Below, piece by piece: positions 5,195 to 49,157 of a stretch of DNA of 64,000 nt. The notes under the pieces are model-generated. The model had not been told where the DNA came from and did no database searches. It saw nothing but the letters and a program-made list of their open reading frames with translations. The DNA comes from a virus, in the IMG/VR virus record IMGVR_UViG_3300025759_000064, positions 32,001-96,000 of that record; one strand, written 5' to 3'. How positions within the stretch are numbered: the stretch's first letter is position 1; the number at the start of each line of letters is the position of its first letter. Both the position numbers and the translations under genes were made by a program.

Positions 5195-6676
5195 CTATGG
5201 TATCATTATCGAGTCATTTTTGCTTTCGCCCTTAAACCACTCATCAAATCCGGGCATGTAATCATCTAAGAGTGTAATGCTTCCCTTGAACTCCTTAGAT
5301 GCCCAATTTGCTAGTGCTAAACTCATCGCCAAGTCATCATGTACGCCTACACTTTCTAGTTTACCATTTTTCTGCATTCCGAATCTATTCAACTCTTGCT
5401 CAACTTTGTGAGTGTAGGTTCTACTTCTTTCATCACCATATGGTAATTTGATGTGGCCTTGTTCAAATGCGAGTAATAAACTCATAAACAACGACTCTTT
5501 ACGAGTACGAGTAGTCATAAATACTCTAATTGGCATATCTGCTCTCAACTCTCTCATTTCTTGTTCTAACATACGCTGAAAATTATTACCTTCAAGTTGA
5601 ATTAAATCAGGACTAAATCGACTATTTAGTAATACCATCATTCTTTTCTGAGCCATAGAAGACATACCTCTCTCATGTACCACGTGAACTATTTCTTTTG
5701 TTGCTTCACCGGGCTTTTGTCGCATCACAGTTATAGCGGTAAAATCGGCATTTTTATCAGATGATATAGCGGGGTCGTGTCCCACAAAATGTTGACCAAA
5801 GACTCCGTTTGCTTCACCTTCTTCGTTATAGAAAGTTTCAGCCCTGTCAATCAAAACAAGTTTAGGGTCTCTACATTTTTCTAATAATGGGCCGGGGAAC
5901 ATACTCGCCACGTCGTGAATCGGCTCACATAGGTATTCACGGCTAAACTGTATTGCTGGCATAGACATTCTTCTTTTCTCTAAAGATTCTAAATCCCATC
6001 TTTCAGGCCATAAGGCAACTCCTTCTTGGTTTATTGCTGGATAAGTTTCTACTCTAAAAGTTTCTTTTTGTTCTAATTCAGCGTATAAATCGTTGTAACT
6101 GAAAGGAGTTCCTACCATCATTAACTTACTACTGTGGTGAAGCACAGGTAACAAAACACCGTAAAACCAATCTGCTGTTTTAGCAAGTTCACTTGCAGTA
6201 GTACCCCATAGAATATCGTCACATACAACAATGTCAGGGTGGAAACCACGTGTAGCACCTCCAACTGACTTTGCCATCATACGGCTACCATTGGAAAACT
6301 CGAAGTAAGATTTAGCCCAAGGTTTACCCTGTGGCTTCAAATCTCTAAGTATATCGTGCCCTTCTATTGTATTACGTACAAAGCGCATGTGTTCAAGAGT
6401 TTGTTCAAGGGAGTGTGAGAATATCATAACGTGGGTATTAGGTTTGAATGCCGCTAACCATAACGCATACATCATAAAGAAAACTGATTTTCCGTGGTCT
6501 CTTGACGCTTTAACACAAAAATACTGAGATTCTTCTAATCCTTCTTTCCAAGATTCGTGATGGTGATTGTACATGAAACCTAGCATATCTACAAAAAAGT
6601 ACTTGAAAGATTTCTTAGACATCTCCGTATCCATATTAAGAATAAAGGCATCCATTTCTTCCTTATTCTTACTCAT
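5195..6676 (-). CDS. terL: Terminase large subunit
   Basis: Walker A-like ASRDHGKS, Walker B IVVCDD, coupling motif VGTP, RNase H-like nuclease GHDPA...DFTA...HDDLAMS. Confidence 0.92.
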   Translation of the reverse strand: MSKNKEEMDAFILNMDTEMSKKSFKYFFVDMLGFMYNHHHESWKEGLEESQYFCVKASRDHGKSVFFMMYALWLAAFKPNTHVMIFSHSLEQTLEHMRFVRNTIEGHDILRDLKPQGKPWAKSYFEFSNGSRMMAKSVGGATRGFHPDIVVCDDILWGTTASELAKTADWFYGVLLPVLHHSSKLMMVGTPFSYNDLYAELEQKETFRVETYPAINQEGVALWPERWDLESLEKRRMSMPAIQFSREYLCEPIHDVASMFPGPLLEKCRDPKLVLIDRAETFYNEEGEANGVFGQHFVGHDPAISSDKNADFTAITVMRQKPGEATKEIVHVVHERGMSSMAQKRMMVLLNSRFSPDLIQLEGNNFQRMLEQEMRELRADMPIRVFMTTRTRKESLFMSLLLAFEQGHIKLPYGDERSRTYTHKVEQELNRFGMQKNGKLESVGVHDDLAMSLALANWASKEFKGSITLLDDYMPGFDEWFKGESKNDSIMIP

Positions 6677-7338
6677 AAATACTCCTGTCGTAAAGCATTC
6701 ATTGGATGGTAATTATTACTATCATTAAACCAATTTTGGTCTTTACTCTCCTGTCGTAGAGATTGCATAGCAGCATTAGTCGGTGACGGTGACTCTTCTT
6801 CTGTAAACTCATCGTCTACTATCTGACGAGGAGGTGGTAATTGTTTTGGAGATGCGATTGTAGATACAGTAGTATTATTCTCAGGTGTACCCATTCCTTT
6901 CCCTCTTCTTACCCCGATTTGTGCTCCTAAAGTAGTAGAATACGGTTGTGCGGTTCGCCCCCCAGTATAAGCAGCAGTACCTATATTCGCCATCCCACTA
7001 AAGTCAAGCGGTTCACCACTAGAACTCAAATTGTAAAATGTGCTAAGACCGCCTAACCCAGCACCTGCATATAGACCCGCTCTGCCTAATCTTTTAGCCC
7101 ATTTTTCTCCATGTTTACCTTGTTCGACAGTGGCAGTACCATCTGTGGGTAATGCTCCGGGCGATGTAACGTTGCCCTGTTTGTCATACGTTCCATAAAC
7201 TGCATCCTCAGGTGTAACCCAATTTGGTAGATTATACATGACATTACCAAAACCACCTCCCGATTGACCACCACCCATCATAAAGGCTGACGATGGATTA
7301 GCACCAGCGTCTTTTCTAATAACGTAAACTTTACCCAT
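6673..7338 (-). CDS. Gly-rich putative internal virion/ejection protein
   Basis: 221 aa with a glycine-zipper-like hydrophobic stretch GLYAGAGLGGLSTF; late operon. Confidence 0.5.
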   Translation of the reverse strand: MGKVYVIRKDAGANPSSAFMMGGGQSGGGFGNVMYNLPNWVTPEDAVYGTYDKQGNVTSPGALPTDGTATVEQGKHGEKWAKRLGRAGLYAGAGLGGLSTFYNLSSSGEPLDFSGMANIGTAAYTGGRTAQPYSTTLGAQIGVRRGKGMGTPENNTTVSTIASPKQLPPPRQIVDDEFTEEESPSPTNAAMQSLRQESKDQNWFNDSNNYHPMNALRQEYL

Positions 7339-9765
7339 TTAGACACCCCCGAATGAAACCTTGACCACTTTAACTACTCTATCGGAATAGCCGTATGTCT
7401 TAGATATTCTCTCCCAATCGCCTTTAGTGTTTAATATTGTACTAACATCCATAGATGTGATGTCTAGCATTTTCGCTAAGTAAAGAATGTCTGTAATAGA
7501 ATCTACGCTTAAATTATTAGAAGGTAAATGCTTGATAATTTCATCATCTTTTCGAGCATCTTCTATTTGTAATATTTCTACTGCTTTAATTAGTCTATCC
7601 ATGGCGGCATTATGCCCATCTTTACTTTTAGTAGGATAGTCAGAAAGAAAACGTTGGTAGGGGTCACCCATATTTTGTTGAAACTCTCGTTGTCTCTGAG
7701 AAGATACTACACCAACTGGTGGTACTTGGGTTTCTCCGGGGTAAAGCACTTGCGCTTGCTGAGGATGGTATTGTGGTCGAGGTAATCTAGACATTACATT
7801 TTGTACTGTTTCAGGAGACGCATAACCAAACTTTGCTCTCATTTGTTGGTCAGGAGTTATTTTTTTATTTGCAACTAATTGACGAAAGTGTTCTGTATTT
7901 GGGTCTACTTGCAATTGTGCTCTTCTTGCAGCATCGCTTAGTGGTGGTGGCGCACCACTAGTTGCAGCCGGAGGTGCACCGCCGGAAACTGGAACAGGTG
8001 CACCGGATATACCTTTTTCTTTACCCGGTTGTGGTTTTAATGTGGTTTCTTCGGGTTGCATAGATGCGCCGACTGGTGACATAGATGATGTCATGTCTGA
8101 ATATCTAATGTGTTCTGGCACACCTAATTGCCCCCTATCTTCGTGTGTACCTCCTTGAAGTATATTGTCTACAATTGGTTGTAATTGCTGTAATTCTTCT
8201 TGTGAAGGTATTTCTTTTCTTTCATGTCCCCCCGCTATGGTGTGGCTATGAAACAAATGGTCTAGCATTATTTTTACATTAGGCGCAGCCGCTCTTGTTT
8301 CAGGAGTATCATACAATCTAATTTTTGCCGCTTTCAAATCTTCGGGCGATAAATCATCTTCTGCATGATTGATTCCCTGAGATGCTGCAAGCACAACATT
8401 ACTCCATGCGTCTTTTGCTCTATTATGATGACCTATACCTCCTCTTACTTGATGTTGCTTATACGCTTCAATTTTTTCAGTATGGCTCATAAAATGGTCA
8501 AGCCCTTTTCCTTCTTCTGCTGTATCTCCATATCTCTGCCCATATAGATGATTCATTTTTCCAACAGTTTGACCTGCTTGTTTTATACTCCCATCTTCAT
8601 TAAACTTAGGATTTCTATTTTCACCGTAAACTGCTTGAAACGCTGGAAACTGAGATAAATAATTAGCCGCTTCTAATTGTCCTTGAGGTGTTTGTAATAA
8701 TACTTTTAGCGGCTTACCGTTTATTTCACCGGGTATATTTGCTAAATGTTTCATAGCCCCTGCGCTATCAACTATCAAGTTATTAACAACCCCTTCTCTA
8801 TTTTTCCCAGTTACTAAAGCCATGTGATGAAGAAAACTATCTACTGTTTGTTTTCTTGTTTGTCTTTTTCCACCCGGTGCTGCATCAATTTGAGGTATGT
8901 AGTAAACGTTAGGATAATGATGGGCTATTCCCCAAGATGTAATATTTTGAAAGGCTCTACTATCAGGTATTCTACTACCCCATTTTAATCTTTGACTTCC
9001 GTGTAATCTATCACCATCTAATTTACCTGAGTCTATCGAATTAGCACCAAACTGCATCCCACCTTTTCCATCAGGAACTAAATGTAATCTATGTGGTTTT
9101 ACATAAGGTTTCTTTACCCAACTATGTTTTTGCGGATTAGGATGTCCCAGTTGTGCCATAACTTCTCCAAGTTGTTTATTGAAAGGTATAGCATAAGATT
9201 CTAGATAAGTGCCACTTCTATGATTATCGCCGTGTCTATTAGTATACGTTGTAATTAAATTACCATCTTGAGTATAATTACTTCTTACTCTATGGTCTTG
9301 TTCCGTTAATGGTGCTAAATGCATTTTTCTCCAACCAACGCTATCTACATTAGGTAAATGATTGTCTTCTTTATGGTTTTGATTATGCATATCTATGGCT
9401 TTTTGAATTACATCTTTTGCTGGCGCTTTTATTCCATGTTCTAACAAAGAGTCCCCAACTGCACGTATTATTCCGTCAATACCATGCATGTGTTCTCCGC
9501 CGGATTCATCAGCGTATATTTGTTCTCCATGCATACCTGTTTTCCAATCACCGGGAAAAACGTGACCCATTCCGGGCACCCCCGTTTCTTCTTCCGAGTG
9601 AGCGCCAGTGTGAGCAAACGCTGGAATATCAGGCATATTTGGGTCTCGGTTATGAGCCTCAGGCGGTGGGAATCTTAGAGGATTCATTTTACCTGCAAAT
9701 AAACTATAATTACCATCGCCCTTTCTAAGTAGAAGAGATTTCATAATTATAGAGGATTTAATCAT
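7339..9765 (-). CDS. Large His/Pro/Gln-rich putative virion protein
   Basis: 808-aa ORF in the late operon; no recognisable catalytic motif. Confidence 0.6.
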   Translation of the reverse strand: MIKSSIIMKSLLLRKGDGNYSLFAGKMNPLRFPPPEAHNRDPNMPDIPAFAHTGAHSEEETGVPGMGHVFPGDWKTGMHGEQIYADESGGEHMHGIDGIIRAVGDSLLEHGIKAPAKDVIQKAIDMHNQNHKEDNHLPNVDSVGWRKMHLAPLTEQDHRVRSNYTQDGNLITTYTNRHGDNHRSGTYLESYAIPFNKQLGEVMAQLGHPNPQKHSWVKKPYVKPHRLHLVPDGKGGMQFGANSIDSGKLDGDRLHGSQRLKWGSRIPDSRAFQNITSWGIAHHYPNVYYIPQIDAAPGGKRQTRKQTVDSFLHHMALVTGKNREGVVNNLIVDSAGAMKHLANIPGEINGKPLKVLLQTPQGQLEAANYLSQFPAFQAVYGENRNPKFNEDGSIKQAGQTVGKMNHLYGQRYGDTAEEGKGLDHFMSHTEKIEAYKQHQVRGGIGHHNRAKDAWSNVVLAASQGINHAEDDLSPEDLKAAKIRLYDTPETRAAAPNVKIMLDHLFHSHTIAGGHERKEIPSQEELQQLQPIVDNILQGGTHEDRGQLGVPEHIRYSDMTSSMSPVGASMQPEETTLKPQPGKEKGISGAPVPVSGGAPPAATSGAPPPLSDAARRAQLQVDPNTEHFRQLVANKKITPDQQMRAKFGYASPETVQNVMSRLPRPQYHPQQAQVLYPGETQVPPVGVVSSQRQREFQQNMGDPYQRFLSDYPTKSKDGHNAAMDRLIKAVEILQIEDARKDDEIIKHLPSNNLSVDSITDILYLAKMLDITSMDVSTILNTKGDWERISKTYGYSDRVVKVVKVSFGGV

Positions 9766-11642
9766 GGAGTTCTACCGCCTCGACTTGTTAAGTGGTCTAA
9801 AGGGTTGATTCCAAAAGTACGAGGGTCATTAGTTGCATCTTCCGTTGCACCTTCCGGCCTAGTAGTTTCTTTAGTGGGCGCATTATTATGCGCTGGTAAA
9901 TTACTAGCAGAACCTACGTTTGAATCACCTTTACCTTTTTTCTTGGTTTCTTTTCTTTTCATCGCTCTTCGAGCGTCGTTAACGAGTTGGCGAAGTTCGG
10001 CCATGTCATAGTATGATAGTCCCCGCTTTTGTAATTCGCTACCTTCTCCAACTTCACTAGTCATCACAGGTGCACCTTGTATAGCAGAACTAGGTAATCT
10101 AGGTCTGTAAGTTGGACTCTGACCGGACATACCCTGAACACCAACGCCCATTCTTGGTTGCGACATTACAGGTGGACTAGGTATACTAGGCGATGGTAAT
10201 GTAGCCCTGCGCGGTGAAGATGGGGGCATTAGTGGTGGTGGTCTAATAGACCTAAGTGCAGGTCTTCTCATTTGTTGCGCTTGTCCGGGTAGTAAACTTT
10301 GCAATGTACCACCGCCAGTCAAACCTGCTTTGTAAGAACGTGCACCGAATCTTGACGGTGTAGATGAAACGGTTCGTATGTTACCTAAACGCTTTCGTGC
10401 CTCAGATTGACCGAGGTATTGTCTGTATCTTTGTACATCTTTAGACATAGGTTGTTTAGTTTTTACACCCCTGTGAGACATTTCGACAGCAAGATGCGCT
10501 CTACTTAATCCAGTTTTCTTCCCACCAGCAATACCACGCATTCTAGCCTTGGCTCTTCTAGATGTAGCACTGCCGGGTGTCATTCCGCCCGGTGGTCTCT
10601 TGAACTCACCAGTTGAAGGTCGCCATTTCTTCTGCCTTTCTTTATGTGCTTTTCTTGCTTTTGCCCCTTTCTTTCTTTTCGGCTTTTTACCTACAAAGCC
10701 CTGTCTCTCGCTTTTGAGTAATTGAAATGCTATTTCTATGGGATTACCTTTCAAATCACCCATCATTGACTGGTCAAAAGACGGTTGTGAGTTTTTATGT
10801 TTCAACGCTTTCAGAGTAGCCATGTACATACTCATATTAATCACTGCTAAATCTTCGTGATTCATGTCGTGATAATTAGTTTGATTTCTCATATTTTGTA
10901 AAAGGTTATTAGCAGGGTCTGACAATTGCCTTGGAGCACCTCGCGGAGAACGACTCATCACCATGTAATCATGTAATAGTTTCAAATCACTTTCAGTTTC
11001 ACGCAATTGAGGCTCAAATGCCGCAACACCTTCATTGCTTCTTGTCAACTCATTTACAGCATCGTCATGGTCTTGTACCATTGGATGATTTACATTCATG
11101 TGTAAGAGTGGATATCTGTTTTCATCAAATGAGTTACCAAACATACTCATCTCATTTATATCACCATCTAAATATGACTGTAAATGTTCATCTTTGTATG
11201 CTTTTAATAATTGGAATGCTATTTCCATAGGTTCTCCCATGGCAAAGTTCTGCCCTCCGGCAAAACCCGGCCCTCTAGCCTGATTTGCTAAACTTGTAAG
11301 TGCGCCGTAATTACCCGGAGTACCAGTCATCAAAGATGGCTCTAACTCATTATCAAACTTAGTAGGTTGTAAATCTTCATCTTCATCTTCAACGGCAGGT
11401 AAGTCAGCAGTTGTAATAGAAAGATGTTTTAATCGCTTCATTTCATTTGCTCTATCTTTACGTTCTTGTTTTTTACGGTCAATACGAGCATCACGATGTT
11501 CTGTATCTTCTCCGCCGTATGCACCTTCTTCTTCGTGATTTGCGCGGAACATGTGAGAAGATTCACTTCTCGGTCCATACATTCGCGTATCGCTACCCGT
11601 ACTTGTCATACCTGATTTTAGAATACGCACAGGTTTACTCAT
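9762..11642 (-). CDS. Large low-complexity basic putative virion polyprotein with two PxEIAFQLLK repeats
   Basis: ORF track gives 9762..11657; ATG at 11642 preferred (GGGGG SD). Motif copies at 11202-11231 and 10713-10742. Confidence 0.65.
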   Translation of the reverse strand: MSKPVRILKSGMTSTGSDTRMYGPRSESSHMFRANHEEEGAYGGEDTEHRDARIDRKKQERKDRANEMKRLKHLSITTADLPAVEDEDEDLQPTKFDNELEPSLMTGTPGNYGALTSLANQARGPGFAGGQNFAMGEPMEIAFQLLKAYKDEHLQSYLDGDINEMSMFGNSFDENRYPLLHMNVNHPMVQDHDDAVNELTRSNEGVAAFEPQLRETESDLKLLHDYMVMSRSPRGAPRQLSDPANNLLQNMRNQTNYHDMNHEDLAVINMSMYMATLKALKHKNSQPSFDQSMMGDLKGNPIEIAFQLLKSERQGFVGKKPKRKKGAKARKAHKERQKKWRPSTGEFKRPPGGMTPGSATSRRAKARMRGIAGGKKTGLSRAHLAVEMSHRGVKTKQPMSKDVQRYRQYLGQSEARKRLGNIRTVSSTPSRFGARSYKAGLTGGGTLQSLLPGQAQQMRRPALRSIRPPPLMPPSSPRRATLPSPSIPSPPVMSQPRMGVGVQGMSGQSPTYRPRLPSSAIQGAPVMTSEVGEGSELQKRGLSYYDMAELRQLVNDARRAMKRKETKKKGKGDSNVGSASNLPAHNNAPTKETTRPEGATEDATNDPRTFGINPLDHLTSRGGRTP

Positions 11643-12039
11643 GTTGAACCCCCGCAAAATTAAATGACGTTAACATAACAAGTTTTCCGATATTACGATA
11701 AAACAAAGGAACGGTAGATGGGGTAGTAAACTTTGTACCCATTTCTTCACAGTGTTCTAAATAATTATAGCAACTATGACGTATTTGTTCTCTTAACGGT
11801 AAAACAATTTCAGGTTCATCAGTATCATCTAATTGTTTCACACATTCTATAATATGCATTAAACTATCTTCATTAACTAGGACATTGGCTTCTTTGAATG
11901 CATGGTATCTAAAACGTTCTGTTACCTTGACACAATAATCAAAGAACAAAGGATATTGTGATTTTTCCATATTTTCACCCGATAAGAATGAAAGATAGCC
12001 CGGATGCTGTGTTTGCATTAAATCAACCACAGGTATCAC
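11635..12039 (-). CDS. Hypothetical protein
   Basis: 134-aa ORF, GTGA-coupled to the upstream gene. Confidence 0.6.
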   Translation of the reverse strand: MIPVVDLMQTQHPGYLSFLSGENMEKSQYPLFFDYCVKVTERFRYHAFKEANVLVNEDSLMHIIECVKQLDDTDEPEIVLPLREQIRHSCYNYLEHCEEMGTKFTTPSTVPLFYRNIGKLVMLTSFNFAGVQHE

Positions 12040-15862: not shown

Positions 15863-15873
15863 ACTGCTTTACC

Positions 15874-16586: not shown

Positions 16587-16670
16587 CTGTCCGAATATTC
16601 TAATGTCTTGTATATACATAAAGAATAATATGTACTATTGTATAGATAGACAATCGGAATCATCGGACAG
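16587..16670. repeat. Imperfect palindromic element, copy 1 (homologous to 62905-62978, partly to 26971-27086)
   Basis: CTGTCCGAATATTC...TACATA-N8-TATGTACT..TATAGA..GACAATCGGAATCATCGGACAG. Confidence 0.65.
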
Positions 16671-17136
16671 GCCATATACCTTCAGGTGCATATTTTTGCC
16701 ACATAGATTGAGCCTCAGGTGATTGGTCATTATCAGGGGTTAATGTTTGGTCATAATTAGATAACACTTCTGCCATAGTATCATAGAGATTTTTAGCATA
16801 TCCTCTTTGTCGATAAGGTTGTTCTGTTCTCGCATTCATAACACTGGTAGTGTTTCTATCGCCTAAAGTTCTAGCATTCATTCTATTCCTATCACTAATA
16901 TTCCCAGCGATATTTAATCTAGGTCGTGTTCTTTTCAAAGGTTTACCAAAATAAGTTCCACCGTTTTCTCGCCTTCTAACATCTATGTCTGTTTGTAATA
17001 TTTCATTAGTAACAGGGTCTTGAAAATCAGCAGCCCACGTATCGTGTTCGCCTGATGGTTCAGATGTTACTCTTCTTAATGAATCGGGAATCATAGGCGC
17101 TTTGAGCACAATCCACGCTTGGTCGAAGGCGGTCAT
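16660..17136 (-). CDS. GNAT-family acetyltransferase with AFDxAWxxLK leader
   Basis: Acetyl-CoA motif A YRQRGYAKNLY and C-terminal QSPEAQSMW. Confidence 0.7.
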   Translation of the reverse strand: MTAFDQAWIVLKAPMIPDSLRRVTSEPSGEHDTWAADFQDPVTNEILQTDIDVRRRENGGTYFGKPLKRTRPRLNIAGNISDRNRMNARTLGDRNTTSVMNARTEQPYRQRGYAKNLYDTMAEVLSNYDQTLTPDNDQSPEAQSMWQKYAPEGIWPVR

Positions 17137-17351
17137 TGATTATCACTCCACCAAGTATCTACTTCAGGGTCATTCATCAAATCTTCATTAAAATAATAGA
17201 AATGCTTCTTGTAACAATCATCACATAACATTCTTGGAAAATCAACGCCATCATCAAGTGTATGATTCTGACTGTTTAACAAAGCACCACAATGTGAACA
17301 AGCGCCCACTTCTAATTTTAGCAAAGCCCACGCTTGGTCGAAGGGGTTCAT
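17133..17351 (-). CDS. Small Zn-finger protein with PFDQAWALLK leader
   Basis: CxxC...CxxC; ATG at 17351 (TGATG overlap). Confidence 0.65.
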   Translation of the reverse strand: MNPFDQAWALLKLEVGACSHCGALLNSQNHTLDDGVDFPRMLCDDCYKKHFYYFNEDLMNDPEVDTWWSDNQ

Positions 17352-17710
17352 CAGCAGTTCCACCGTTTGAGCGCTGCGCCCTTCGGTGTTAGTTTTCCAC
17401 CTTTACTGGTCGGTCCTTTGCTCCCACCCATTCTAGCACAGAATGACTTTCTTCTGTTTGCCGCTTTACTACCGGGTTTTAGTGAACTTGGTTTTTTAGT
17501 AACAGGTCTTTTCAAGTTTGCACCTGTCTCTCGCTTGAACTTTGCACGCCCTTTTGCATTTAGACCACCACTTCTGCTATGCCTGTTTGGATTGTAACCG
17601 TGAAATGGTTTTGATTTCTTTTTTGCTTTTTCAAACACAGAATCTAACAGTGCTACTGATGCTTGTTGCATAGGTGTGCAACAGTCACATGTGTCAAATC
17701 CCATAGTCAC
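17351..17710 (-). CDS. Basic protein, DUF6321-like (marine viruses)
   Basis: GGLNAKGRA...NLKRP...RRKSFCARM...LKRWNC signature, recalled from memory. Confidence 0.65.
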   Translation of the reverse strand: MTMGFDTCDCCTPMQQASVALLDSVFEKAKKKSKPFHGYNPNRHSRSGGLNAKGRAKFKRETGANLKRPVTKKPSSLKPGSKAANRRKSFCARMGGSKGPTSKGGKLTPKGAALKRWNC

Positions 17711-18015
17711 CGTAACACACCCACCATCTTAACAATTGTTGGCTTTCCGCCCACACCTTGCTTTTTTGCACGTTTTCTTTTTGTTGCTGCTTGCTTCTGA
17801 CCTGATGACATAGAACCTGATGTTTTTGGCGTTTTGCTTGAAACCTTGATTGATGGTCTGCATTTAGGATAACCTTTACTAGATTTATTTGCTTTACTTC
17901 TACCACACGGAGGATGCTTACCATCTTTAGTACGCGACACATCTACCCATTTTTCTTTGAACCAGCGATTTAGGTTCTTAACTACAAGAGTATCATGGCA
18001 AGTACATCGTGTCAT
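17707..18015 (-). CDS. Basic Cys-containing viral protein (LxRWFKEKWVD..CGR..YPKCRP family)
   Basis: Motif resembles widespread marine virus hypothetical proteins. Confidence 0.65.
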   Translation of the reverse strand: MTRCTCHDTLVVKNLNRWFKEKWVDVSRTKDGKHPPCGRSKANKSSKGYPKCRPSIKVSSKTPKTSGSMSSGQKQAATKRKRAKKQGVGGKPTIVKMVGVLR

Positions 18016-18173
18016 ACTACTCCTACCATTTTCTTAATACTCTTTTGTTTATCCATCAATGCGTAACAAGGACATTTAGGAGCGGATGCTGAACATTGAT
18101 TACCCTCAATCATACAAACGCAAGGCGTTTTACTAGTAGCCCCGCAACAACATTTGTCTTTCTTAAGTTTCAT
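18012..18173 (-). CDS. Small Cys-rich protein (53 aa)
   Basis: Manual translation MKLKKDKCCCGATSKTPCVCMIEGNQCSASAPKCPCYALMDKQKSIKKMVGVV; ATGA-coupled at both ends. Confidence 0.65.
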   Translation of the reverse strand: MKLKKDKCCCGATSKTPCVCMIEGNQCSASAPKCPCYALMDKQKSIKKMVGVV

Positions 18174-18340
18174 TTTTTCTTTTTCCCCTTAAACTTACCA
18201 CGACAATATTGAACAGCCCACCCGTTTGCATACGCAGATGGGTAAACATCGAACTTTTTCTTTGCGGCTGCTTTTCCAGCAGGGCATAGTTTTTTCCAAA
18301 CCGCATCCATACCAACACAATGACCGCATTCGCAACTCAT
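18170..18340 (-). CDS. Small basic protein (LCPAGKAAAK..F.VYPSAYAN family, 56 aa)
   Basis: Manual translation MSCECGHCVGMDAVWKKLCPAGKAAAKKKFDVYPSAYANGWAVQYCRGKFKGKKKK; ATGA-coupled. Confidence 0.7.
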   Translation of the reverse strand: MSCECGHCVGMDAVWKKLCPAGKAAAKKKFDVYPSAYANGWAVQYCRGKFKGKKKK

Positions 18341-19902
18341 TTTTTCACCTTAACCCTGCGAAGTGTACCTTTATTTTTGAAATGCCTTGCTCTATTTGAG
18401 TGTGCACTCTCTAAAGTTAATTTTCCACCTTGCGTGTGGCTGACATCTTTACCACCTTTTCCGTATATGCCCCGCTTCCTACGCTCTGTGTTTAATTGCT
18501 CACGATACTTTACACGCTTAGGTGTCTTTTGATATTGCTTGTCATACTCTAATTTGTGAGCAAATGCTGCTGGCGACTTGCGCTCTTTGAGCAACTGATA
18601 GGCTATGTCCATTGGTTCGCTGGCTAGTTTCCGATTTTTCCACTCAAAACGGGTAGTATATTCAGGATGGTCTTCGGGAAGCAACGACATTGGAGGACGT
18701 TCTTTACTTGGCTCAAGCCGTCTATATTCATTTTCAAAATGTCGTCTGTTCTCCCTTTTTTGTTTTTCATAATACCTATTGAACTCCTTTATTGAATCCC
18801 AATAGTCTTGTTCATTATAATCTTTTATATTTCCATATCCGTATAATCTTTCAGAGCCTTCATCTCGCTCGTATGGTTGGATATTGCTGAAATAATCATA
18901 TAACATATTTTCATCCATATCTTCGTCTTCCTGAATATTTTTAAGCAACTGGAGGGCTATGTCCATTGGACTACCTTTAGTCAATTCGTAGATTTCATCT
19001 TTAGTTTTACCATAAAATAAATTATGTAACTCATCTGCATCCATATCTTCTATCTTTTTTCGTTTAATCGGCTTACCCCAAGGTAAAGGTTTGTCGCTCC
19101 ATCTACTAATTCGGCCACTTGGCCTTCTGTCTGTATTACTAATATTACGACCTAAATTGGGAGTGCCCATCTCTAGTGTTTCGTCTTTATAATGTCGTCG
19201 CAATGGTACTTCAACTAAACTTTCACGTGGAATATTTTCATCATGCTCAATAAACGCTTCTGCTAAATCTTCTTTTGCTTCGTCACTATCTCTTCTGTGC
19301 ACTTTTCCGTATTTATCAAGATTTCCACGTACATAAACTAACTTATCGGGGGCATTATGGGTGTATAAATTATTAATATCTCCCATTGTATTATTTGAAA
19401 CCCAAGTTCCAGCCTTTGCATTTTTTAATCCAGCGAAAAGTTTTCGCGCGCGGGGATGATACTTACCATCTCTATGCGCACCTGCCATATAATACGGTAC
19501 ATTTGATATAGGGTCTTTCCTCCATCTCGAATTAGGGTCTTCCCAAACAGGGTCATTATCATGGGGTATTTCAGGAATCAGTGGTGGAAGTCTTGGGTCA
19601 CCTTCTTCATAGTTTATATTAGAGCCATCTTGCGGTACAGGTTCTCCCGCAGGTCTATGCGCCCCTTGTACACGAACAGCCCTAACGGGGTCCCATCCTT
19701 CCCAACCAGTTGTGTAATCTAATCTAGGGTCATGCATTGGCAACTTTGTTTGATAATTATTTTCAATTGTGTACTCCGGGTGATTTGGAAACAATTGCGC
19801 TCTTCTCGCTTGTTCCATCATATCCATATATTCTTTCGATTCTTTAATAGCCTCTTCATCTTCTAACGATTTTAGAAAAGCCCAAGATTTGTTAAACACC
19901 AT
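18337..19902 (-). CDS. Modular polyprotein: leader, ART-like domain, acidic module, HNH-like basic domain
   Basis: Start MVFNKSWAFLK. AVR...GTWVS...EAFI..IP ART-like pattern. PMDIAxQLLK repeats at 18940-18969 and 18586-18615. C-terminal KDVSH...LE..H.NRAR. Confidence 0.6.
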   Translation of the reverse strand: MVFNKSWAFLKSLEDEEAIKESKEYMDMMEQARRAQLFPNHPEYTIENNYQTKLPMHDPRLDYTTGWEGWDPVRAVRVQGAHRPAGEPVPQDGSNINYEEGDPRLPPLIPEIPHDNDPVWEDPNSRWRKDPISNVPYYMAGAHRDGKYHPRARKLFAGLKNAKAGTWVSNNTMGDINNLYTHNAPDKLVYVRGNLDKYGKVHRRDSDEAKEDLAEAFIEHDENIPRESLVEVPLRRHYKDETLEMGTPNLGRNISNTDRRPSGRISRWSDKPLPWGKPIKRKKIEDMDADELHNLFYGKTKDEIYELTKGSPMDIALQLLKNIQEDEDMDENMLYDYFSNIQPYERDEGSERLYGYGNIKDYNEQDYWDSIKEFNRYYEKQKRENRRHFENEYRRLEPSKERPPMSLLPEDHPEYTTRFEWKNRKLASEPMDIAYQLLKERKSPAAFAHKLEYDKQYQKTPKRVKYREQLNTERRKRGIYGKGGKDVSHTQGGKLTLESAHSNRARHFKNKGTLRRVKVKK

Positions 19903-19903
19903 T

Positions 19904-20122
19904 CTAAATCCATCCTGATGTCCTCTTTGATTGTTGTGTCTTAGGTTGTGACGTAGGTTGAGGCGGATTGGCTTGCATATTTCTTTTAGCATCTGCGTTT
20001 TTAGCCATTATCATGTCTTGTAGAGACATAAAGCGACCTGAGCCGGGAGGATATTCGTGCATATCAATGGGGTCTGCTTTGAGAAATTGCCAAGCCTCAT
20101 TGAATGCGGTCAACCCAATCAC
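19904..20122 (-). CDS. Small protein with AFNEAWQFLK leader
   Basis: 72-aa ORF, coupled. Confidence 0.65.
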   Translation of the reverse strand: MIGLTAFNEAWQFLKADPIDMHEYPPGSGRFMSLQDMIMAKNADAKRNMQANPPQPTSQPKTQQSKRTSGWI

Positions 20123-21264
20123 CTATTTGCAAAAACATCTTTTGGCATACGAGGTCTTGGTTTGTTAGGGTCTGCAAATCGTGGGTCACCCGGTCTAGGC
20201 GCACCACGTGGTTTTCGCATTTCAGGCATACCTTCCGCCATTATTGCAGCCCGTTCCGCTTCATTCATTTCCGCTTGGCGTGCATCTTCATCACCAAACT
20301 CAGGTTTACCGTATGGCGGTCCTAAATCTTCCCCATCATATTCAGGAAAACCTTCATCATCGTATCTACTTGGACCGGGCATACTATCTCTAGTGTAATT
20401 ATTCGCCCCTTTTCTATGTAAATCTTCGTCTATAAAACGTTGAGGAGACATATCAGGAAGATTTCGTGCTCTGACGTGTTCGGGTAAATTAGATATTCTA
20501 AAGTTTTGCTTCAACATTTCAAATGCTTTTTGCATAGGTTTACCCCTGCCGGGGATTCGATGTAGCATTTTTGAATTGATAAGTTCTTGTAATTTTGCCT
20601 CACTTGCTGCTCTTTTACCAAGTTTAGTGTTTTTTAACGCTTCTTGCAAAAATGGGGCATAATCATCCTTAAAATCCCGCACCTCTTTATTAGTTGGGTG
20701 TGTTTGTTGGTATGAGTAAGATTGTGGTGCTTTGGTTCTTCTTTGGTTATCTTTGTTAGCATAAGCATTCATTTGGTCCATAGGGTCATCTACACTTCCA
20801 TATGGCATACTATCGGCGTAGTACTCAGGGTGCATATCTAACGTTGGGGTTTTACCATCACGGTAATCTAATGCACTTTCATTTGCACGAAGATTCAGAT
20901 TTGGCAAGTCTGCATTTTCGTCATTATAACTACCTGATGTCAAATGGGGGTTTTCTTTCATGCGCCTCTGCATCATCCCATATATCGCAGGGTGTATAGT
21001 ACCCGCACCCTCTTGCCTCTCTCCGACATCAGGGCCTTCTCCTTGGTAAGTGATTTCTGCTAGATTGGCTCTGTCATAAGCAGGTTCAAACATTTGATGC
21101 TCAGGTAGCGCTTTCAAGGTCTGCCACGATTTCTTCATAGGCATAGAGCCGTATTTCTTCATGTTCGGTGTAGCGGCATCGGTGGGCTTAGTTTTCATTT
21201 TTGGCCCAATGCTGATAATTACAGCAACGCCCTTTTTCTTTTTCTTGTCTTTCATTTTAATCAC
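20119..21264 (-). CDS. Low-complexity putative virion protein with internal PMxxxW/FxxLK motifs
   Basis: 381 aa; PMKKSWQTLK and PMQKAFEMLK. Confidence 0.65.
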   Translation of the reverse strand: MIKMKDKKKKKGVAVIISIGPKMKTKPTDAATPNMKKYGSMPMKKSWQTLKALPEHQMFEPAYDRANLAEITYQGEGPDVGERQEGAGTIHPAIYGMMQRRMKENPHLTSGSYNDENADLPNLNLRANESALDYRDGKTPTLDMHPEYYADSMPYGSVDDPMDQMNAYANKDNQRRTKAPQSYSYQQTHPTNKEVRDFKDDYAPFLQEALKNTKLGKRAASEAKLQELINSKMLHRIPGRGKPMQKAFEMLKQNFRISNLPEHVRARNLPDMSPQRFIDEDLHRKGANNYTRDSMPGPSRYDDEGFPEYDGEDLGPPYGKPEFGDEDARQAEMNEAERAAIMAEGMPEMRKPRGAPRPGDPRFADPNKPRPRMPKDVFANR

Positions 21265-21266
21265 TT

Positions 21267-21614
21267 TTAATTTTGATATTGTGGATTATTTTGCTGGTAC
21301 GGTGGCCTTTCATGCTCAAATGGGTTTCTTTTAGCCTCAAATGGTTTGGGTTGATGAGGTTGGTAAGGGTTGTAAGGTAGGTTGTTATCATTTGGATTAC
21401 CTTGTCCGTATGGCGCATTTTGCTTCATTCTCTCCATGTACTCGTCCAAAGTTCGCTGTTTACCTTCTTTTGATGGAGAGGGGGCGTAAGGGTTAGGTTG
21501 AGGATTATTTCGGTAAGGTTGGTTAGATGGATTGGAAGGCATTGCTCGGTGGTATAAATAATTCGGGTTAGGTGCGCTTTTCAAAAACGTCCACGCTGTT
21601 TCAAATGCTGTCAT
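21267..21614 (-). CDS. Pro/Asn/Tyr-rich protein with AFETAWTFLK leader
   Basis: 115-aa ORF. Confidence 0.7.
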   Translation of the reverse strand: MTAFETAWTFLKSAPNPNYLYHRAMPSNPSNQPYRNNPQPNPYAPSPSKEGKQRTLDEYMERMKQNAPYGQGNPNDNNLPYNPYQPHQPKPFEAKRNPFEHERPPYQQNNPQYQN

Positions 21615-21874
21615 TCTCCTTGACCCCCTCTAAATGACTCAAACCATTCGGGATGGTTCTGTCTGTAAAAATCAATTATTTTAGCATCTTCTTCGTGGTC
21701 ATCTATTTTTTCACGTAATTTTGAAGCCTTTTGCTTCTTTTTACGGCTATCAGACCTTGTTTTACCAGTTTGATTCAGTGCCTCTTCCATGTAACTTGGC
21801 ATATCGTGCTGCATAGCAACTTGAGAGGAGGGGGACATTTTTAGCACATTTATTGCTGCATCTATTGGATTCAT
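21611..21874 (-). CDS. Small protein with PIDAAINVLK leader variant
   Basis: ATG at 21874 after a GGTGA SD. Confidence 0.65.
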   Translation of the reverse strand: MNPIDAAINVLKMSPSSQVAMQHDMPSYMEEALNQTGKTRSDSRKKKQKASKLREKIDDHEEDAKIIDFYRQNHPEWFESFRGGQGE

Positions 21875-22055
21875 TTTATTCACCTTTTACGCATCGGCGT
21901 GGTAACTACGTGCACCGCTAGTAATGCGATATGTCTAATATGTTACGCTCTATCCTGAGGGCGTGGTGGCTTCCATTCCGCAGGGTCAAGTTGTTGTAAG
22001 TTCTTCTTCTTTCCACATTCATTACCTCAAAAAAAATAAGCAGACTGGTGGGAAT

Positions 22056-22679
22056 ATGGAAGTCACCGCACCTGTTTTGGTTACTAAAGGCGTAGGAGAA
22101 ACAGCGCTAAACTTGGGCGCTCTTGCACTTGCACCATTTACTGGTGGTATGTCGGCAGTTGCCTTAGGAGCAGCAAGAGGCGCACAGGCATTGAGAGCGG
22201 TAAAAGCAGCAAAAGGTGCAAAAACTGCCGTAGGAACTACTCAAGCCGCTAAAACTACTGCTGGTAAAGTTGCAGTTAAAGACCCAATGGCTATGGCAAA
22301 CGCAAGACATGCAGAGCAAATAGCAGAGGCTGGTGAAAGCGGAGGTAGATTAGGTCAATTGCGAAGTAGAGCAGTAACACCAACGGCGGCAGAAGAATTA
22401 GAGGCTGCAACTTCAAATCAAGCAAGAATGAAAGATATAGCAAGCACTACTGATGCAGCAGCAGAAGCGGAAAAAAATCTTGCCGAATTACATGAGCAAC
22501 AAAAAACTGCAACAGATACAGCAGGGGCTGCTGCTGTTGTGGGAGTACAAGGCACAAACGCTGCCGCACAACAAAAACAGGCACAACAAAAAGCCGAAAT
22601 GGAAAGAATAGAAGGATTAGCGGAAGATGCTAGGTCAAAAGCCAGCACCGGAACTGGTGGGAAGGTAGCGGTGGCATGA
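22056..22679 (+). CDS. Ala-rich helical protein with a hydrophobic glycine-zipper segment (ejection-protein-like)
   Basis: ATG at 22056 after GGTGGG; LGALALAPFTGGMSAVALGAA. Confidence 0.65.
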   Translation: MEVTAPVLVTKGVGETALNLGALALAPFTGGMSAVALGAARGAQALRAVKAAKGAKTAVGTTQAAKTTAGKVAVKDPMAMANARHAEQIAEAGESGGRLGQLRSRAVTPTAAEELEAATSNQARMKDIASTTDAAAEAEKNLAELHEQQKTATDTAGAAAVVGVQGTNAAAQQKQAQQKAEMERIEGLAEDARSKASTGTGGKVAVA

Positions 22680-22789
22680 TTGCCATGGCTCTAAAAGGCT
22701 ACATTAAACTGCAATTAGCCCAAATGATACAGCATTTGATTGTCGGCTTAGGACTTGTAGTTGTAGTTACTGTTATACTTTTATCTTAG
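22676..22789 (+). CDS. Tiny single-TM membrane protein (37 aa)
   Basis: Manual translation MIAMALKGYIKLQLAQMIQHLIVGLGLVVVVTVILLS; ATGA-coupled to 22056..22679. Confidence 0.5.
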   Translation: MIAMALKGYIKLQLAQMIQHLIVGLGLVVVVTVILLS

Positions 22790-23621
22790 TATTTACAAAC
22801 TTGACTAGCGGTTCTAAGTCTTTAAGCGTAACACCACAATCAAGATTCTCTCTATCAGCCCAGTGTACTAACTGTTCTGTGGCTAAATTGCCCCCTGAGC
22901 CGGGTACAAACGGGCAACCGCCCATTCCTCCAATGCTAGAATCGAACTGTGTGATGCCGCAATCGAAGCCAGCAGACAGATTATCGTACATTCTGCCCTC
23001 TCTTACACCGTGATGTAGGTGCAATGCGATATTTGCATCTATCTTTCTGTCAGTTAAACGCATTACTTTGCGTATCATCGATGGGTTAGCATTACCTATG
23101 GTGTCAGACAAAACTATTGTATCGCCTAAGGTATTTGCCCATTCCATGGTTTTTAGCATGTCTTTTGGCGGTATTTCGCCCATAATCGGGCATCCAAAAG
23201 ATGTAGAAAGGTAAACTCTGACGTTTTTGGTCGGTATTCTGTCTAATGCGCCACTGTATTCAGCAAAAATTGTGTTTAGGTTTTTACCTAAGTTATTGAC
23301 ATTGAAGTAGTTTGACGGTGAGAAAAAAATATTATATTTTTCTACACCAACAGACTTTGCCCTTTCAACACCCACACGGTTTGGCACTAACATACCCAAG
23401 TTGTGCGTAGAGGCTAAATCTTGCACTTTGAGGAATACTACTTCGCTATCAGCCATATTTGGAACTCTGTCAGGATTGACCATTGAGCCAATTTCAATAT
23501 TTTTGATACCCGTATTTGCAATTTTACGTATCAAAGTCACCTTATCGTGCGTAGATGTGATTGTATCTGCGCTCTGCAACCCATCGCGTGGTCCTACTTC
23601 GTAGATTGAAAAGTCGCTCAT
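22773..23621 (-). CDS. hmgL: Hydroxymethylglutaryl-CoA lyase (DRE-TIM metallolyase)
   Basis: EVGPRDGLQ, FGCP, LSDTIG, HLH, and GGMGGCPFVPGSGGNLATE with the catalytic Cys. ATG at 23621 (TAATG overlap). Confidence 0.9.
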   Translation of the reverse strand: MSDFSIYEVGPRDGLQSADTITSTHDKVTLIRKIANTGIKNIEIGSMVNPDRVPNMADSEVVFLKVQDLASTHNLGMLVPNRVGVERAKSVGVEKYNIFFSPSNYFNVNNLGKNLNTIFAEYSGALDRIPTKNVRVYLSTSFGCPIMGEIPPKDMLKTMEWANTLGDTIVLSDTIGNANPSMIRKVMRLTDRKIDANIALHLHHGVREGRMYDNLSAGFDCGITQFDSSIGGMGGCPFVPGSGGNLATEQLVHWADRENLDCGVTLKDLEPLVKFVNTKIKV

Positions 23622-24280
23622 TATTCTGTCTCCCAATCCCACATATCGGGTCTTTCAGTTTCACCAACACCCCCACCGTAAGCCAAATCTTTAATGTCTC
23701 TCGGCACATTGCCCCAAGTAGATTCATCATGCCAATTCATTGGCTGCCCTACGTTTTTACCCTGTCTCATCATAACTAATCGGTGCGGGTCAATCGCCTC
23801 ATGGATAAGCCCTTCAGGAAATCCTTCAGGACTTTGTTTTGCGTTCCTCCACTGCGCATCGAGATTTTTCGCGCCCTCAGGTGTCATACGAATCCCAACC
23901 ATTGAATGTCCCATTCCTTTTCCACTAGGCGTAGCACCAGCGTATGCGGGTGTAACATTACGAAAATCGGGTTTAGTCACCCAAAATCCTTTACCCCCAC
24001 CACGTGTAGTATCAAACTTTTTGTCATTTTTACCAGCCATTACATCTTCCCATTGCGAATTATCTTCTCCATAACCACGGTTTGCGTTTTGCGGCAAAGG
24101 CTGCAAACCTCGATTATCAATATCTTGCATATATTCGCTCGGTACAACACGCATCATCGACATCGGCCCAGCCCGACTAGGAAAATCTGCATGGTATTGA
24201 CCCAAGGTAGTTTGGTCAGGGTGCAATTCAGGATACAAAGGTGACTTTAGAACAGCCCATGCTTGGTCAAAGGGGTTCAT
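23621..24280 (-). CDS. Putative ADP-ribosyltransferase-fold protein with PFDQAWAVLK leader
   Basis: MRVV..I..RGLQP...GFWVT...EGLIHEAIDPHRL resembles the ART/KptA-like strand pattern. Confidence 0.45.
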   Translation of the reverse strand: MNPFDQAWAVLKSPLYPELHPDQTTLGQYHADFPSRAGPMSMMRVVPSEYMQDIDNRGLQPLPQNANRGYGEDNSQWEDVMAGKNDKKFDTTRGGGKGFWVTKPDFRNVTPAYAGATPSGKGMGHSMVGIRMTPEGAKNLDAQWRNAKQSPEGFPEGLIHEAIDPHRLVMMRQGKNVGQPMNWHDESTWGNVPRDIKDLAYGGGVGETERPDMWDWETE

Positions 24281-24648
24281 TGTTGACCCTCCCGATTCGC
24301 CCAAAAACCCTCAGCATCCTCGCTCTGCATGTGATTAGTGTTCTGCACAGTAAGTCCAGTAATTTTCTCAGCGTGGTTGTACATGTCCGTGGCTATACCC
24401 CCTCTCCGAAAACTCGGATGCGTGTAACTAGCCAAAGGAATCAAGTTACCGTCAGCCACTGAAAACTTTGCATAACCATATTTTATGGGCTTTTGGTCGT
24501 ATTTATCCAAACCCTGTATGGCCGCAACCTGTAAATTACCATGTTTATCGTATTCATGCTGCAACGAGAAATCTTCGGGGTCTCCGTAGTAAGGGAAATC
24601 CGGTTTAGGCATTTTGAGTACAGCCCACGCTCGGTCGAAGGCAGTCAT
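24277..24648 (-). CDS. GNAT-family acetyltransferase with AFDRAWAVLK leader
   Basis: HPSFRRGGIATDMY motif A; QSEDAEGFW. Confidence 0.7.
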   Translation of the reverse strand: MTAFDRAWAVLKMPKPDFPYYGDPEDFSLQHEYDKHGNLQVAAIQGLDKYDQKPIKYGYAKFSVADGNLIPLASYTHPSFRRGGIATDMYNHAEKITGLTVQNTNHMQSEDAEGFWANREGQQ

Positions 24649-25178
24649 TCATGCACCCCATCATACGGCCAACGTAGTCTTATCCCTCTATAATCATCTT
24701 GAAACTTAGTGTGAGCAGAACGCCTCTCATCTCCCTCATACGGCAATTCCATGTGTTTTGCCCAAAATGGGGCTGAGGATGCGCTTAACTGACTCGGAAA
24801 TGTCGTTAGCCTAGCATTTTTCTTCTTCGCCATCTCATTCGCCAAATTATAAACACCCGTCATCAAACCTCTTCTTCTGTAACCCTCTCTAGTTTTTGCA
24901 TGAGAAGTTTTCCATTCAGGGCCATAATGCTCGCTAATATGATTAACAGCAAGCGGTTTTCCATCATTATCCATAATTCTTGTATTTAGCCCATACATAT
25001 CATATTCCGACACCATTGGATAGATTTTGTTTGTTTGAGGGTCTTGAAATTGTGCTTCCATCCCACCGTCTTGTACGTCAGCCTCCTTAATGGGGTCCCA
25101 CCCTTCTATTTCTTTAATTGAGCCGGGGATTATCGGCATCTTGAGTATAGCCCACGCAATGTCGAATGCGTTTACCAT
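24645..25178 (-). CDS. GNAT-family acetyltransferase with AFDIAWAILK leader
   Basis: EGYRRRGLMTGVY motif A; shares FQDPxTN with 16660..17136. Confidence 0.7.
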   Translation of the reverse strand: MVNAFDIAWAILKMPIIPGSIKEIEGWDPIKEADVQDGGMEAQFQDPQTNKIYPMVSEYDMYGLNTRIMDNDGKPLAVNHISEHYGPEWKTSHAKTREGYRRRGLMTGVYNLANEMAKKKNARLTTFPSQLSASSAPFWAKHMELPYEGDERRSAHTKFQDDYRGIRLRWPYDGVHE

Positions 25179-32670: not shown

Positions 32671-32673
32671 ACC

Positions 32674-32697: not shown

Positions 32698-32701
32698 TTA
32701 A

Positions 32702-34700: not shown

Positions 34701-34716
34701 TGAAAGAGTGGTAACT

Positions 34717-48563: not shown

Positions 48564-49157
48564 ATGAGTAATATAGCAGTCTGCCAAAAATGCGGTAAAA
48601 ACTTTAGAAAGAAGAACAATAGAACAGTGCGCAGTTATTGCGATGAGTGTAGTACAAATTATACTAAAACGCTAAACAAAAGAAACGTCTACAATAGAAG
48701 TAAATCTTCCATTGAAAAAGAGACCAAAGAAGAGTACAGGATACGTTTACTAGAAGAAGAAATAAAAGAATTAAAATCTGTTTTTGAAAGTATTAGCGAT
48801 AGCACAAAAAGACAGATTGCGAAAGAAGTAGGGGTAGCCATTCAAGAAACAATGAAAATAGCCTCAAAAAACCTAGAAGAAGATTTCAATAATCATAAAC
48901 TTCTTGTCGAGAGCGTAGTATCAGATGAGTTCAAAAAACAAAACACAAAGTTTCAGAATCAATTAGCCATATTGAATACGCGAATGAAAAAGTTAGATGA
49001 AAGTTTTACAGATTTAGATACAAAGATGGCGGAACATTTACATTATTACACCACTAAACTAAGTTTACATAAGAACCGTAAAGGCGGTAGAGTACAAAAG
49101 AATCGAACTATTACTGGTAAAAAGAGGGATGAAGTTGAAAAGGGGGATGAGATATGA
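48564..49157 (+). CDS. Zn-ribbon plus coiled-coil protein
   Basis: CQKC..CDEC followed by heptads. Confidence 0.65.
   Translation: MSNIAVCQKCGKNFRKKNNRTVRSYCDECSTNYTKTLNKRNVYNRSKSSIEKETKEEYRIRLLEEEIKELKSVFESISDSTKRQIAKEVGVAIQETMKIASKNLEEDFNNHKLLVESVVSDEFKKQNTKFQNQLAILNTRMKKLDESFTDLDTKMAEHLHYYTTKLSLHKNRKGGRVQKNRTITGKKRDEVEKGDEI

Follow-up and report, generated by a model that had tools for sequence, protein, structure and literature searches.

What is the role of a short peptide with which ten genes of a single marine archaeal virus begin? The virus is represented by record IMGVR_UViG_3300025759_000064 (110,919 bp, rated 98% complete), of which bases 32001–96000 form the 64,000-nucleotide stretch analysed here, hereafter the window. 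It is a magrovirus-like tailed virus, and its gene content and size agree with those of the magroviruses of Marine Group II archaea (PMC5434244). A previous reading of the sequence alone had listed ten N-terminal leaders on proteins described as unrelated, and had proposed that the leader packages protein-modifying enzymes into the head while its DNA serves as a recombination handle for swapping them. The leader is found here to be one placement of a more widely used peptide tag ending in L-K, which may address proteins to the viral procapsid. In surface ocean waters, magroviruses rank with the most abundant viruses of archaea, and the majority of their genes lack a known function; one tag marking more than 100 otherwise obscure gene families as a single functional class would annotate much of this dark matter.

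The tag and its copies

GC skew and the orientation of the open reading frames (ORFs) split the window into a minus-strand arm (1–25.2 kb), in which the tagged genes come first and the head genes after, and a plus-strand replication arm. The motif [NTS]-[PA]-[FMI]-[DE]-x-A-[WF]-x-[LV]-L-K is present in 16 copies in the 110.9-kb genome, with 15 on the head-gene arm and one on the replication arm; the 47 kb outside the window contains none. It is composed of an N-cap ([NTS]-[PA]) followed by F/M/I, D/E, any residue, A, W/F, any residue, L/V, L and K, with the hydrophobic residues spaced i, i+3, i+4, i+7. The motif is predicted to be helical in both AlphaFold2 (AF2) models that include it, and the tag is followed by a Pro/Asp/Glu-rich stretch. 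All ten leaders listed by the sequence-only reading were found in place, on genes with start ends at 17136, 17351, 19902, 20113 (TTG start), 21614, 21874, 24280, 24648, 25178 and 49154 (plus strand). Six further copies are internal to three large ORFs and start at 18975 and 18621 (521-aa ORF), 21147 and 20544 (381-aa ORF), and 11237 and 10748 (631-aa ORF). The observation of a shared leader is confirmed and is more extensive than first noted.

A 14-column position-specific scoring matrix (PSSM) scored the 16 copies at 28–45 bits, compared with 11 bits for the next best site in the whole genome and a maximum of 17.5 bits over 20 codon shuffles. As this matrix was trained on the same 16 copies that it scores, a leave-one-out analysis was also run, which gave scores of 3–40 bits, with at least 16 bits in 13 of the 16 copies and more than the shuffle maximum in 11. 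The weakest scores belong to the copies at 20544 (3.1 bits), in a kinase-like gene (12.0 bits) and at 21874 (14.9 bits).

The similarity of the leader DNA that had been reported does exist, in the form of a repeat family (D4) of seven 36-nt copies with 67–86% identity, but it lies at about the level forced by the shared amino acids. Across the 16 copies, 237 identical codons were counted at identical residues, compared with 218 expected from codon usage. The proposed recombination handle is unsupported, as codon identity is not in excess and the regions upstream have nothing in common beyond ribosome-binding purines. Synonymous codons being free to vary, selection acts on the peptide and not on the DNA, and by this codon test the tag is a peptide signal rather than a DNA signal.

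Tagged loci and their payloads

Relatives of the locus were collected as 80 viral contigs (1.3 Mb), fetched via a neighbouring GTPase-like gene that is 63–98% identical to the local one. This small gene follows two membrane protein genes (window 14853–16539, minus strand) and exhibits a Roc domain match with an E-value of 0.007, below the cut-off. It was found on at least 179 viral contigs at 63–98% identity, and its place is always between the array and the gene for the tagged 631-aa protein.

The 80 related loci contain 308 tag copies at 20 bits or more, and 299 of these are on the head-gene strand. The tagged array lies upstream of, and in the same orientation as, the genes for the large terminase (TerL, window 5195..6676, minus strand; Terminase_6C 4e-12, Terminase_6N 1e-7), the portal protein (2232..3962, minus strand), an S78 (HK97-type) prohead protease with a fused scaffold-like C-terminal extension of ~280 aa (genome 26086–27465, outside the window) and an SU10-type major capsid protein (MCP; genome 24881–26050, outside the window). 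Several expectations of the sequence-only reading were borne out by these loci. Many copies per genome were seen in every relative examined, enrichment near head genes holds both here (15/16) and in the relatives (299/308), and the payload sets differ even among close relatives. Equal frequency in replication or host genes was not observed, with a single replication-arm copy in this genome and no match to the specific variant MNPFDxAWxxLK, as a DNA pattern, in 185,579 prokaryote genomes. The pattern A-W-x-x-L-K occurs 5–12 times in each of five other near-complete genomes, clustered in ~10 kb, compared with 0–2 occurrences of a reversed-pattern control. As a DNA pattern, P-F-D-x-A-W-x-x-L-K was identified in 78 stretches among 2.9 million viral contigs, about 70 of which have a Met two residues upstream. 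Judged by these searches, the tag is specific to this virus lineage.

Two dialects of the tag are recognizable, M-[NTS]-[PA]-F-[DE]-x-A-W-x-[LV]-L-K at protein starts and [GS]-E-P-M-[DE]-[IL]-A-[FWMY]-[QR]-L-L-K inside proteins. The Ala, aromatic, Leu and Lys positions are nearly invariant, Lys is never replaced by Arg, and L-K is kept in 122/123 and 141/142 copies. The tag is retained across loci in which the flanking genes are just 63–70% identical.

The tag is position-independent, being N-terminal, internal at module junctions and, in relatives, C-terminal. The description of the tag as an N-terminal leader fits ten copies here but not its placement inside proteins and at C-termini; in the relatives, 171 of the 308 copies are internal and several are C-terminal. 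An 82-aa module illustrates this freedom. In multi-module proteins it forms the final segment and is preceded by an internal tag. Elsewhere it is encoded by a gene of its own and tagged at the N-terminus (L078:462–725, P0045), lacks an N-terminal tag but has a C-terminal one with 2–3 further residues (P0057, P0052), or precedes a tag that leads into a zinc finger (P0062, P0063). Its more distant homologues (P0068–P0090), presumably from other phage groups, carry no tag. Together with the varied placement, these tag-less homologues indicate that the tag is an add-on acquired within this virus lineage and separable from every payload. In one sub-lineage, the gene directly upstream of TerL encodes a Gly-rich protein of 330–400 aa with the tag at its C-terminus, followed by just four residues, as seen on at least six independent contigs. 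Its positional counterpart in this genome is a 221-aa Gly-rich protein (6673..7338, minus strand), also directly upstream of TerL, which has kept a decayed tag, S-P-T-N-A-A-M-Q-S-L-R, near its C-terminus (~6748–6783). Given the internal and C-terminal copies, a cleaved leader cannot be the whole function of the tag.

When the tagged ORFs were cut at their tags, the resulting 323 modules fell into 123 sequence clusters, mostly singletons or pairs. A single cluster is widespread (55 loci) and consists of the 82-aa basic module and the tagged part of the 631-aa protein, both of which persist while the other payloads turn over. A relative with a 98% identical GTPase has 7 of 9 payload clusters in common with this genome, relatives at 91–93% have 3–5 of 9–11, and more distant relatives have the core cluster alone. 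A 25-aa ORF on one related contig (L005:8854, plus strand) is barely more than a decayed tag, M-N-P-F-D-Q-A-W-V-L-L-N-R-A-stop, and appears to be the remnant of a lost payload gene.

The claim that the tagged proteins of this genome are unrelated mostly holds, except that three GNAT-like proteins are paralogues at 25–40% identity. These are encoded on the minus strand and consist of a 177-aa protein (24645..25178) beginning M-V-N-A-F-D-I-A-W-A-I-L-K, a short 123-aa paralogue (24277..24648; M-T-A-F-D-R-A-W-A-V-L-K) with Acetyltransf_7 and Acetyltransf_1 matches at E ~0.005, below the cut-off, and a 158-aa paralogue (16660..17136; M-T-A-F-D-Q-A-W-I-V-L-K). The AF2 model of the first (predicted local distance difference test [pLDDT] 73, predicted TM-score 0.70) gave about 50 top Foldseek matches in the PDB, all of them GNATs (probability 0.95–1.0, E 1e-3 to 3e-2), and its payload exhibits GNAT profile matches at E 0.1–2; the Pfam scores of the GNAT-like payloads are all below cut-off. 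In the GNAT-like alignment, the acetyl-CoA-binding motif A, [RQ]-x-x-G-x-[GA], has an invariant Gly and a nearly invariant Arg. The motif reads R-Q-R-G-Y-A and R-R-G-G-I-A in two of the three paralogues and ends in Met in the third. The GNAT assignment of this one payload family is supported at the level of the predicted fold, while the ART-like, kinase-like and HNH-like labels given to other payloads remain leads.

The ART-like lead concerns a 219-aa protein of unassigned payload family (23621..24280, minus strand) with the start M-N-P-F-D-Q-A-W-A-V-L-K. Its payload has no Pfam, PHROG or PDB match, and its Atlas scores against PARP and Tox-ART clusters (0.87) fall short of the lead threshold of 0.9. 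The kinase-like lead is the 222-aa product of the sole tagged gene on the replication arm (49154..49822, plus strand), which begins with M-T-I-H-D-A-W-A-L-L-K. No Pfam match was found for its payload, the best PDB match is TkArkI (E 0.33), and the Atlas neighbours are HipA_2 and PI3_PI4 at 0.91–0.92. Its neighbour (49878..50192, plus strand) has a decayed tag-like start, M-W-I-A-F-N-D-A-W-L-S-I-V, without L-K. Single-sequence PDB searches with the ART-like, kinase-like and GNAT-like payloads provided nothing significant.

The remaining carriers in this genome are all encoded on the minus strand and include a zinc-ribbon-like protein and Pro/Asn-rich proteins. In relatives, Gly/Ala-rich proteins with glycine-zipper-like segments are carriers as well. 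An 87-aa protein (21611..21874) begins with the weak variant M-N-P-I-D-A-A-I-N-V-L-K, in which I replaces W. It is followed by a 115-aa protein (21267..21614; M-T-A-F-E-T-A-W-T-F-L-K) with a Pro/Asn/Gln-rich payload, the 381-aa ORF (20119..21264) with a Lys-rich head and its two internal tags, and the TTG-started 69-aa protein (19904..20113; L/M-T-A-F-N-E-A-W-Q-F-L-K). The next ORF encodes the three-module 521-aa protein (18337..19902), which has an N-terminal M-V-F-N-K-S-W-A-F-L-K in addition to its internal tags and ends in the conserved 82-aa basic module (18340–18585; phrog_6437, E 2e-19). This module is the HNH-like lead; it has an invariant D-x-S-H ... N-R-A-R-H pattern and is predicted to form a hairpin and a helix, with low confidence (pLDDT 63). 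Pfam, PDB-profile and Foldseek searches gave no match, leaving phrog_6437, of no known function, as the only one. A 72-aa protein (17133..17351; M-N-P-F-D-Q-A-W-A-L-L-K) carries a CxxC...CxxC zinc-ribbon-like payload with Zn_ribbon_Nudix and LIM matches at E ~0.02, below the cut-off. The 631-aa protein (9762..11657) is basic, Pro-rich and of low complexity, bears two internal tags and is present in nearly all relatives.

The array also contains untagged genes. Between 17351 and 18340 (minus strand) there are four small, very basic, Cys-rich proteins, one with a DUF6321 match (1e-16) and one with a DUF5872 match (5e-12), and these are candidate DNA-binding or core proteins. An HMGL-like gene of the aldolase/lyase family (22773–23642, minus strand; Pfam 8e-27) breaks up the array. 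Beside it, on the opposite strand, lies an Ala/Gly-rich ORF (21963–22679, plus strand) that ends just short of the expected tag site, and its homologues in relatives are longer and tagged.

Possible functions of the tag

The reading favoured here, with a probability of roughly one half, is that the tag serves as a portable docking helix for bringing cargo into the procapsid and is perhaps trimmed after L-K by the S78 prohead protease. By way of a Pro/Asp/Glu-rich linker, magroviruses would join a helix of about ten residues to proteins bound for one common receptor. This helix has an [NTS]-[PA] N-cap and a hydrophobic face of F/M, A, W/F, L and L, and it ends in an invariant Lys. The likeliest receptor would be a component of the assembling procapsid, such as the scaffold, the inner surface of the capsid or the portal vertex. 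A core cargo of basic, low-complexity and Gly-rich proteins, together with fast-changing small enzymes or binders (GNAT-like and others), would then be loaded into the head and delivered with the DNA. The receptor, packaging, injection and cleavage that we infer are not equally secure, and cutting after L-K by the S78 protease, which would dice the multi-module proteins and trim the leaders, is a secondary and less certain step.

A docking peptide is suggested because the tag is a near-invariant capped amphipathic helix on a linker, usable at protein ends or between modules. A receptor in the procapsid is favoured for several reasons: the tagged genes belong to the head arm, from which the promoter-like element present in 11 copies on the replication arm is missing, the conserved carriers (basic disordered and Gly-rich) are of kinds found inside heads, the variable carriers are reminiscent of the polymorphic proteins inside T-even phage heads, and the virus encodes an S78 protease-scaffold fusion. 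If this reading is correct, the tag defines the proteins injected to take over or disarm Poseidoniales cells, and provides a ready handle for loading foreign proteins into HK97-type capsids.

Several observations weigh against loading into the procapsid. The conserved kinase-like tagged gene sits on the replication arm, and the tagged array also adjoins a divergent control region that would suit early host-takeover genes equally well. The C-terminal tail of the scaffold, M-S-W-D-E-V-H-x-L-A, is highly conserved but resembles the tag by none of the scores computed; it gave −9 to −28 with the tag model (rank 2,581 or worse of 34,804) and ~7 with BLOSUM62 over 9 positions by hand, and as a mimic of the tag it was rejected for this genome. 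The first two of these observations are shared by the main alternative, a somewhat unlikely one, in which the helix docks on a hub other than the capsid and aims many modifiers or binders at one target inside the infected cell. Host RNA polymerase, the ribosome, chromatin, a chaperonin, the viral thermosome or the Arf/Roc-like GTPase-membrane operon are candidates for such a hub. Short helices that can sit anywhere in a protein and keep an invariant core are characteristic of linear docking motifs, enzyme-like payloads fit host takeover, and the array adjoins the GTPase operon as well as the control region. However, the absence of MNPFDxAWxxLK from the prokaryote genomes searched indicates that at least this form is not a copy of a host motif. 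The most conserved carriers, which are long, basic, disordered or Gly-rich and encoded beside the terminase, would be odd clients of an enzyme-targeting hub, and the array lacks the promoter element of the replication arm.

The secondary step, cleavage after L-K, is suggested by several sequence features. The L-K itself is invariant, and Pro occurs at +1 after it in 1 of 260 cases and is enriched at +2 to +7. The S78 domain ends in an invariant N-P-E-A-T-F-x-I-L-K, directly before a hypervariable gapped linker, and h-x-h-L-K-[GAS] is conserved after the variable N-terminus of the protease. Near the N-terminus of the MCP, G-S-E-L-L-K-A-D-S-P resembles the L-L-K-A-[DP]-P tag junction. An N-terminal h-L-K is present in 6 of 42 untagged head-arm ORFs compared with 1 of 61 on the other arm, a post-hoc comparison with p roughly 0.02. 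HK97 gp4, the type S78 protease, cuts gp5 after Lys103. Against this step, the protease and MCP sites have just h-L-K in common with the tag, [ILVFM]-L-K is found 60 times in the proteome, helix C-capping would yield the same Pro pattern after L-K, and C-terminal tags with only 3–6 residues after L-K gain nothing from cutting. The tag look-alikes in the protease and MCP were retained as no more than a weak hint, with E-A-T-F-S-I-L-K scoring 5.4 bits with the core PSSM (rank ~39 of 35,800 positions). Upstream of the internal tags, no clear cleavage consensus was identified (−1 is T/M/K/A/R and −3 is hydrophobic or Lys).

That the tag is a recognition element of the viral protease alone, serving polyproteins and leaders with no addressing role, is distinctly improbable. 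The internal copies lie exactly at module junctions, the L-K is invariant and almost never followed by Pro, and the virus has its own S78 protease, all of which agree with a cleavage site. Ten conserved helical residues, however, go well beyond what proteases of the S78/assemblin type are known to recognize. A 12-residue leader removed for its own sake would be purposeless on single-module genes, and the C-terminal tags would release nothing.

A decidedly doubtful explanation is that the tag sorts proteins and is recognized by a trafficking machine of the virus itself, composed of the Arf/Roc-like small GTPase and its membrane proteins. In all relatives fetched, the GTPase gene neighbours both the array and the gene for the tagged 631-aa protein, and if correct this would represent a viral protein-sorting system working in an archaeal cell. 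Less exotic but also new would be true encapsulin-style loading, in which the helix docks directly on the interior of the HK97-fold capsid from any position in the cargo. This would link viral scaffolding with encapsulin cargo loading and would amount to programmable protein delivery into uncultured marine archaea. Targeting of proteins to the host membrane by an amphipathic helix is very unlikely. In its favour, the tag is short and amphipathic, presents Phe, Trp and Leu on a single face of the helix and includes a Lys, and membrane proteins are encoded beside the array. Membrane-targeting helices vary widely, though, whereas Ala, Trp/Phe, Leu and Lys are almost invariant here and the Lys is never Arg; the helix is also too short and too weakly hydrophobic, and it is attached to highly basic, DNA-binding-like proteins. 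It is scarcely credible that the shared start is a functionless relic of duplication or recombination at gene starts, as the tandem arrangement of the tagged genes and the paralogy of the three GNAT-like payloads might suggest, since the motif is kept while synonymous sites and all downstream sequence diverge, is conserved across loci with flanking genes 63–70% identical, and is carried by 123 payload clusters unrelated to one another, within proteins as well as at C-termini.

Neighbouring features and known systems

The divergent intergenic region between the two arms contains CATTACGC in eight direct copies and one inverted copy (window 25230–25673). This array is iteron-like and may represent a replication origin or a regulator-binding array. 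The archaeal TATA-like element TTGACTATATAAACCGAGATTGAA is present in 11 copies upstream of gene blocks, on the plus strand only (window 25733–62897). Its absence from the head-gene arm implies that this arm uses a promoter class of its own. Also on the plus strand, five genes start with M-I-D-T-[DT] (29974, 33455, 33747, 34193 and 36013; window 29974–36240) and have ~28 nt of DNA in common, including the ribosome-binding site (GGAGGAAGAAGAATGATTGACACAGACA). Here the identity is at the DNA level, unlike that of the L-K tag, and the starts could reflect a tandem paralogue family or a shared translation-initiation cassette.

Within the head-gene arm, a 380-aa ORF between the terminase and portal genes (3964–5106, minus strand) is kept in relatives and has a weak LAGLIDADG_3 match (E 0.017), and it may be a gene derived from a homing endonuclease. 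Between the portal and protease genes, an 1820-aa ORF (genome 27511–32973, minus strand) contains E-L-L-K-A at residues 31–35, like the MCP. The arm also includes tail genes beyond the window. A giant ORF of more than 5068 aa (genome 1–15205, minus strand) runs off the end of the contig. A thermosome gene is encoded on the other arm.

No paper describing the tag was identified in the magrovirus literature or through full-text searches on the motif and capsid targeting. The capsid-targeting sequence (CTS) of phage T4 is likewise a peptide of ~10 residues common to otherwise unrelated, polymorphic proteins, a feature also observed here. The CTS ends at the cutting site of the T4 prohead protease, which is a relative of the S78/assemblin fold. 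In the internal proteins IPI-III and Alt (Mullaney and Black 1996, as summarised in PMC9024508), the CTS suffices for a foreign protein to be taken up by the prohead. It differs from the magrovirus tag in being N-terminal only and ending in Glu, whereas the tag is also internal or C-terminal and ends in Lys. There is no sequence similarity between the two, the tag is carried by more than 100 payload clusters in an archaeal virus, and the function of the CTS is proven while that of the tag is a proposal.

In phage P1, an N-terminal signal of ~30 residues on one protein, DarB, directs the Dar anti-restriction cargo that is injected with the DNA (PMC9024508). The likeness consists of a terminal peptide, an HK97-type head and a cargo for host takeover or anti-defence. 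Loading in P1 differs in being stepwise with helper proteins, and no short motif is common to many genes.

Encapsulin cargo-loading peptides are short, sit on a flexible linker at either end of the cargo and dock inside an HK97-fold shell. The linker and the use of either cargo end are features in common with the tag, which has N-terminal, C-terminal and internal copies. The encapsulin peptides are, however, extended, rich in Gly/Ser/Leu and uncut rather than capped amphipathic helices, and encapsulins are not viruses. The capsid and scaffold proteins of phage 80-alpha have a common N-terminal leader, which is removed by the host protease Prp after a Phe. In this respect one short leader is likewise carried by several head proteins, in 80-alpha with removal at a fixed site, but the 80-alpha leader is limited to structural proteins, depends on a host enzyme and involves no variable cargo.

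In giant phages such as SPN3US and phiKZ-like phages, the prohead protease acts on many proteins of the head interior, and the DNA is accompanied on delivery by a large protein cargo (PMC10052503, PMC7411985). These ejection proteins have a three-residue cleavage motif in common and no ten-residue helix, and their propeptides are mutually different. As far as sequence comparison reaches, the magrovirus tag has no relationship to the T4, P1, encapsulin or giant-phage systems. New in the present case are the position independence, the tag-less distant homologues, the absence of the specific variant from cellular genomes, the codon test, the measured payload turnover and the negative outcome for scaffold-tail mimicry in this genome. 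Should the tag indeed label proteins for capsid loading, archaeal viruses would have their first system of this kind; it would also be the most diversified known, and one that works at any cargo position, unlike that of T4.

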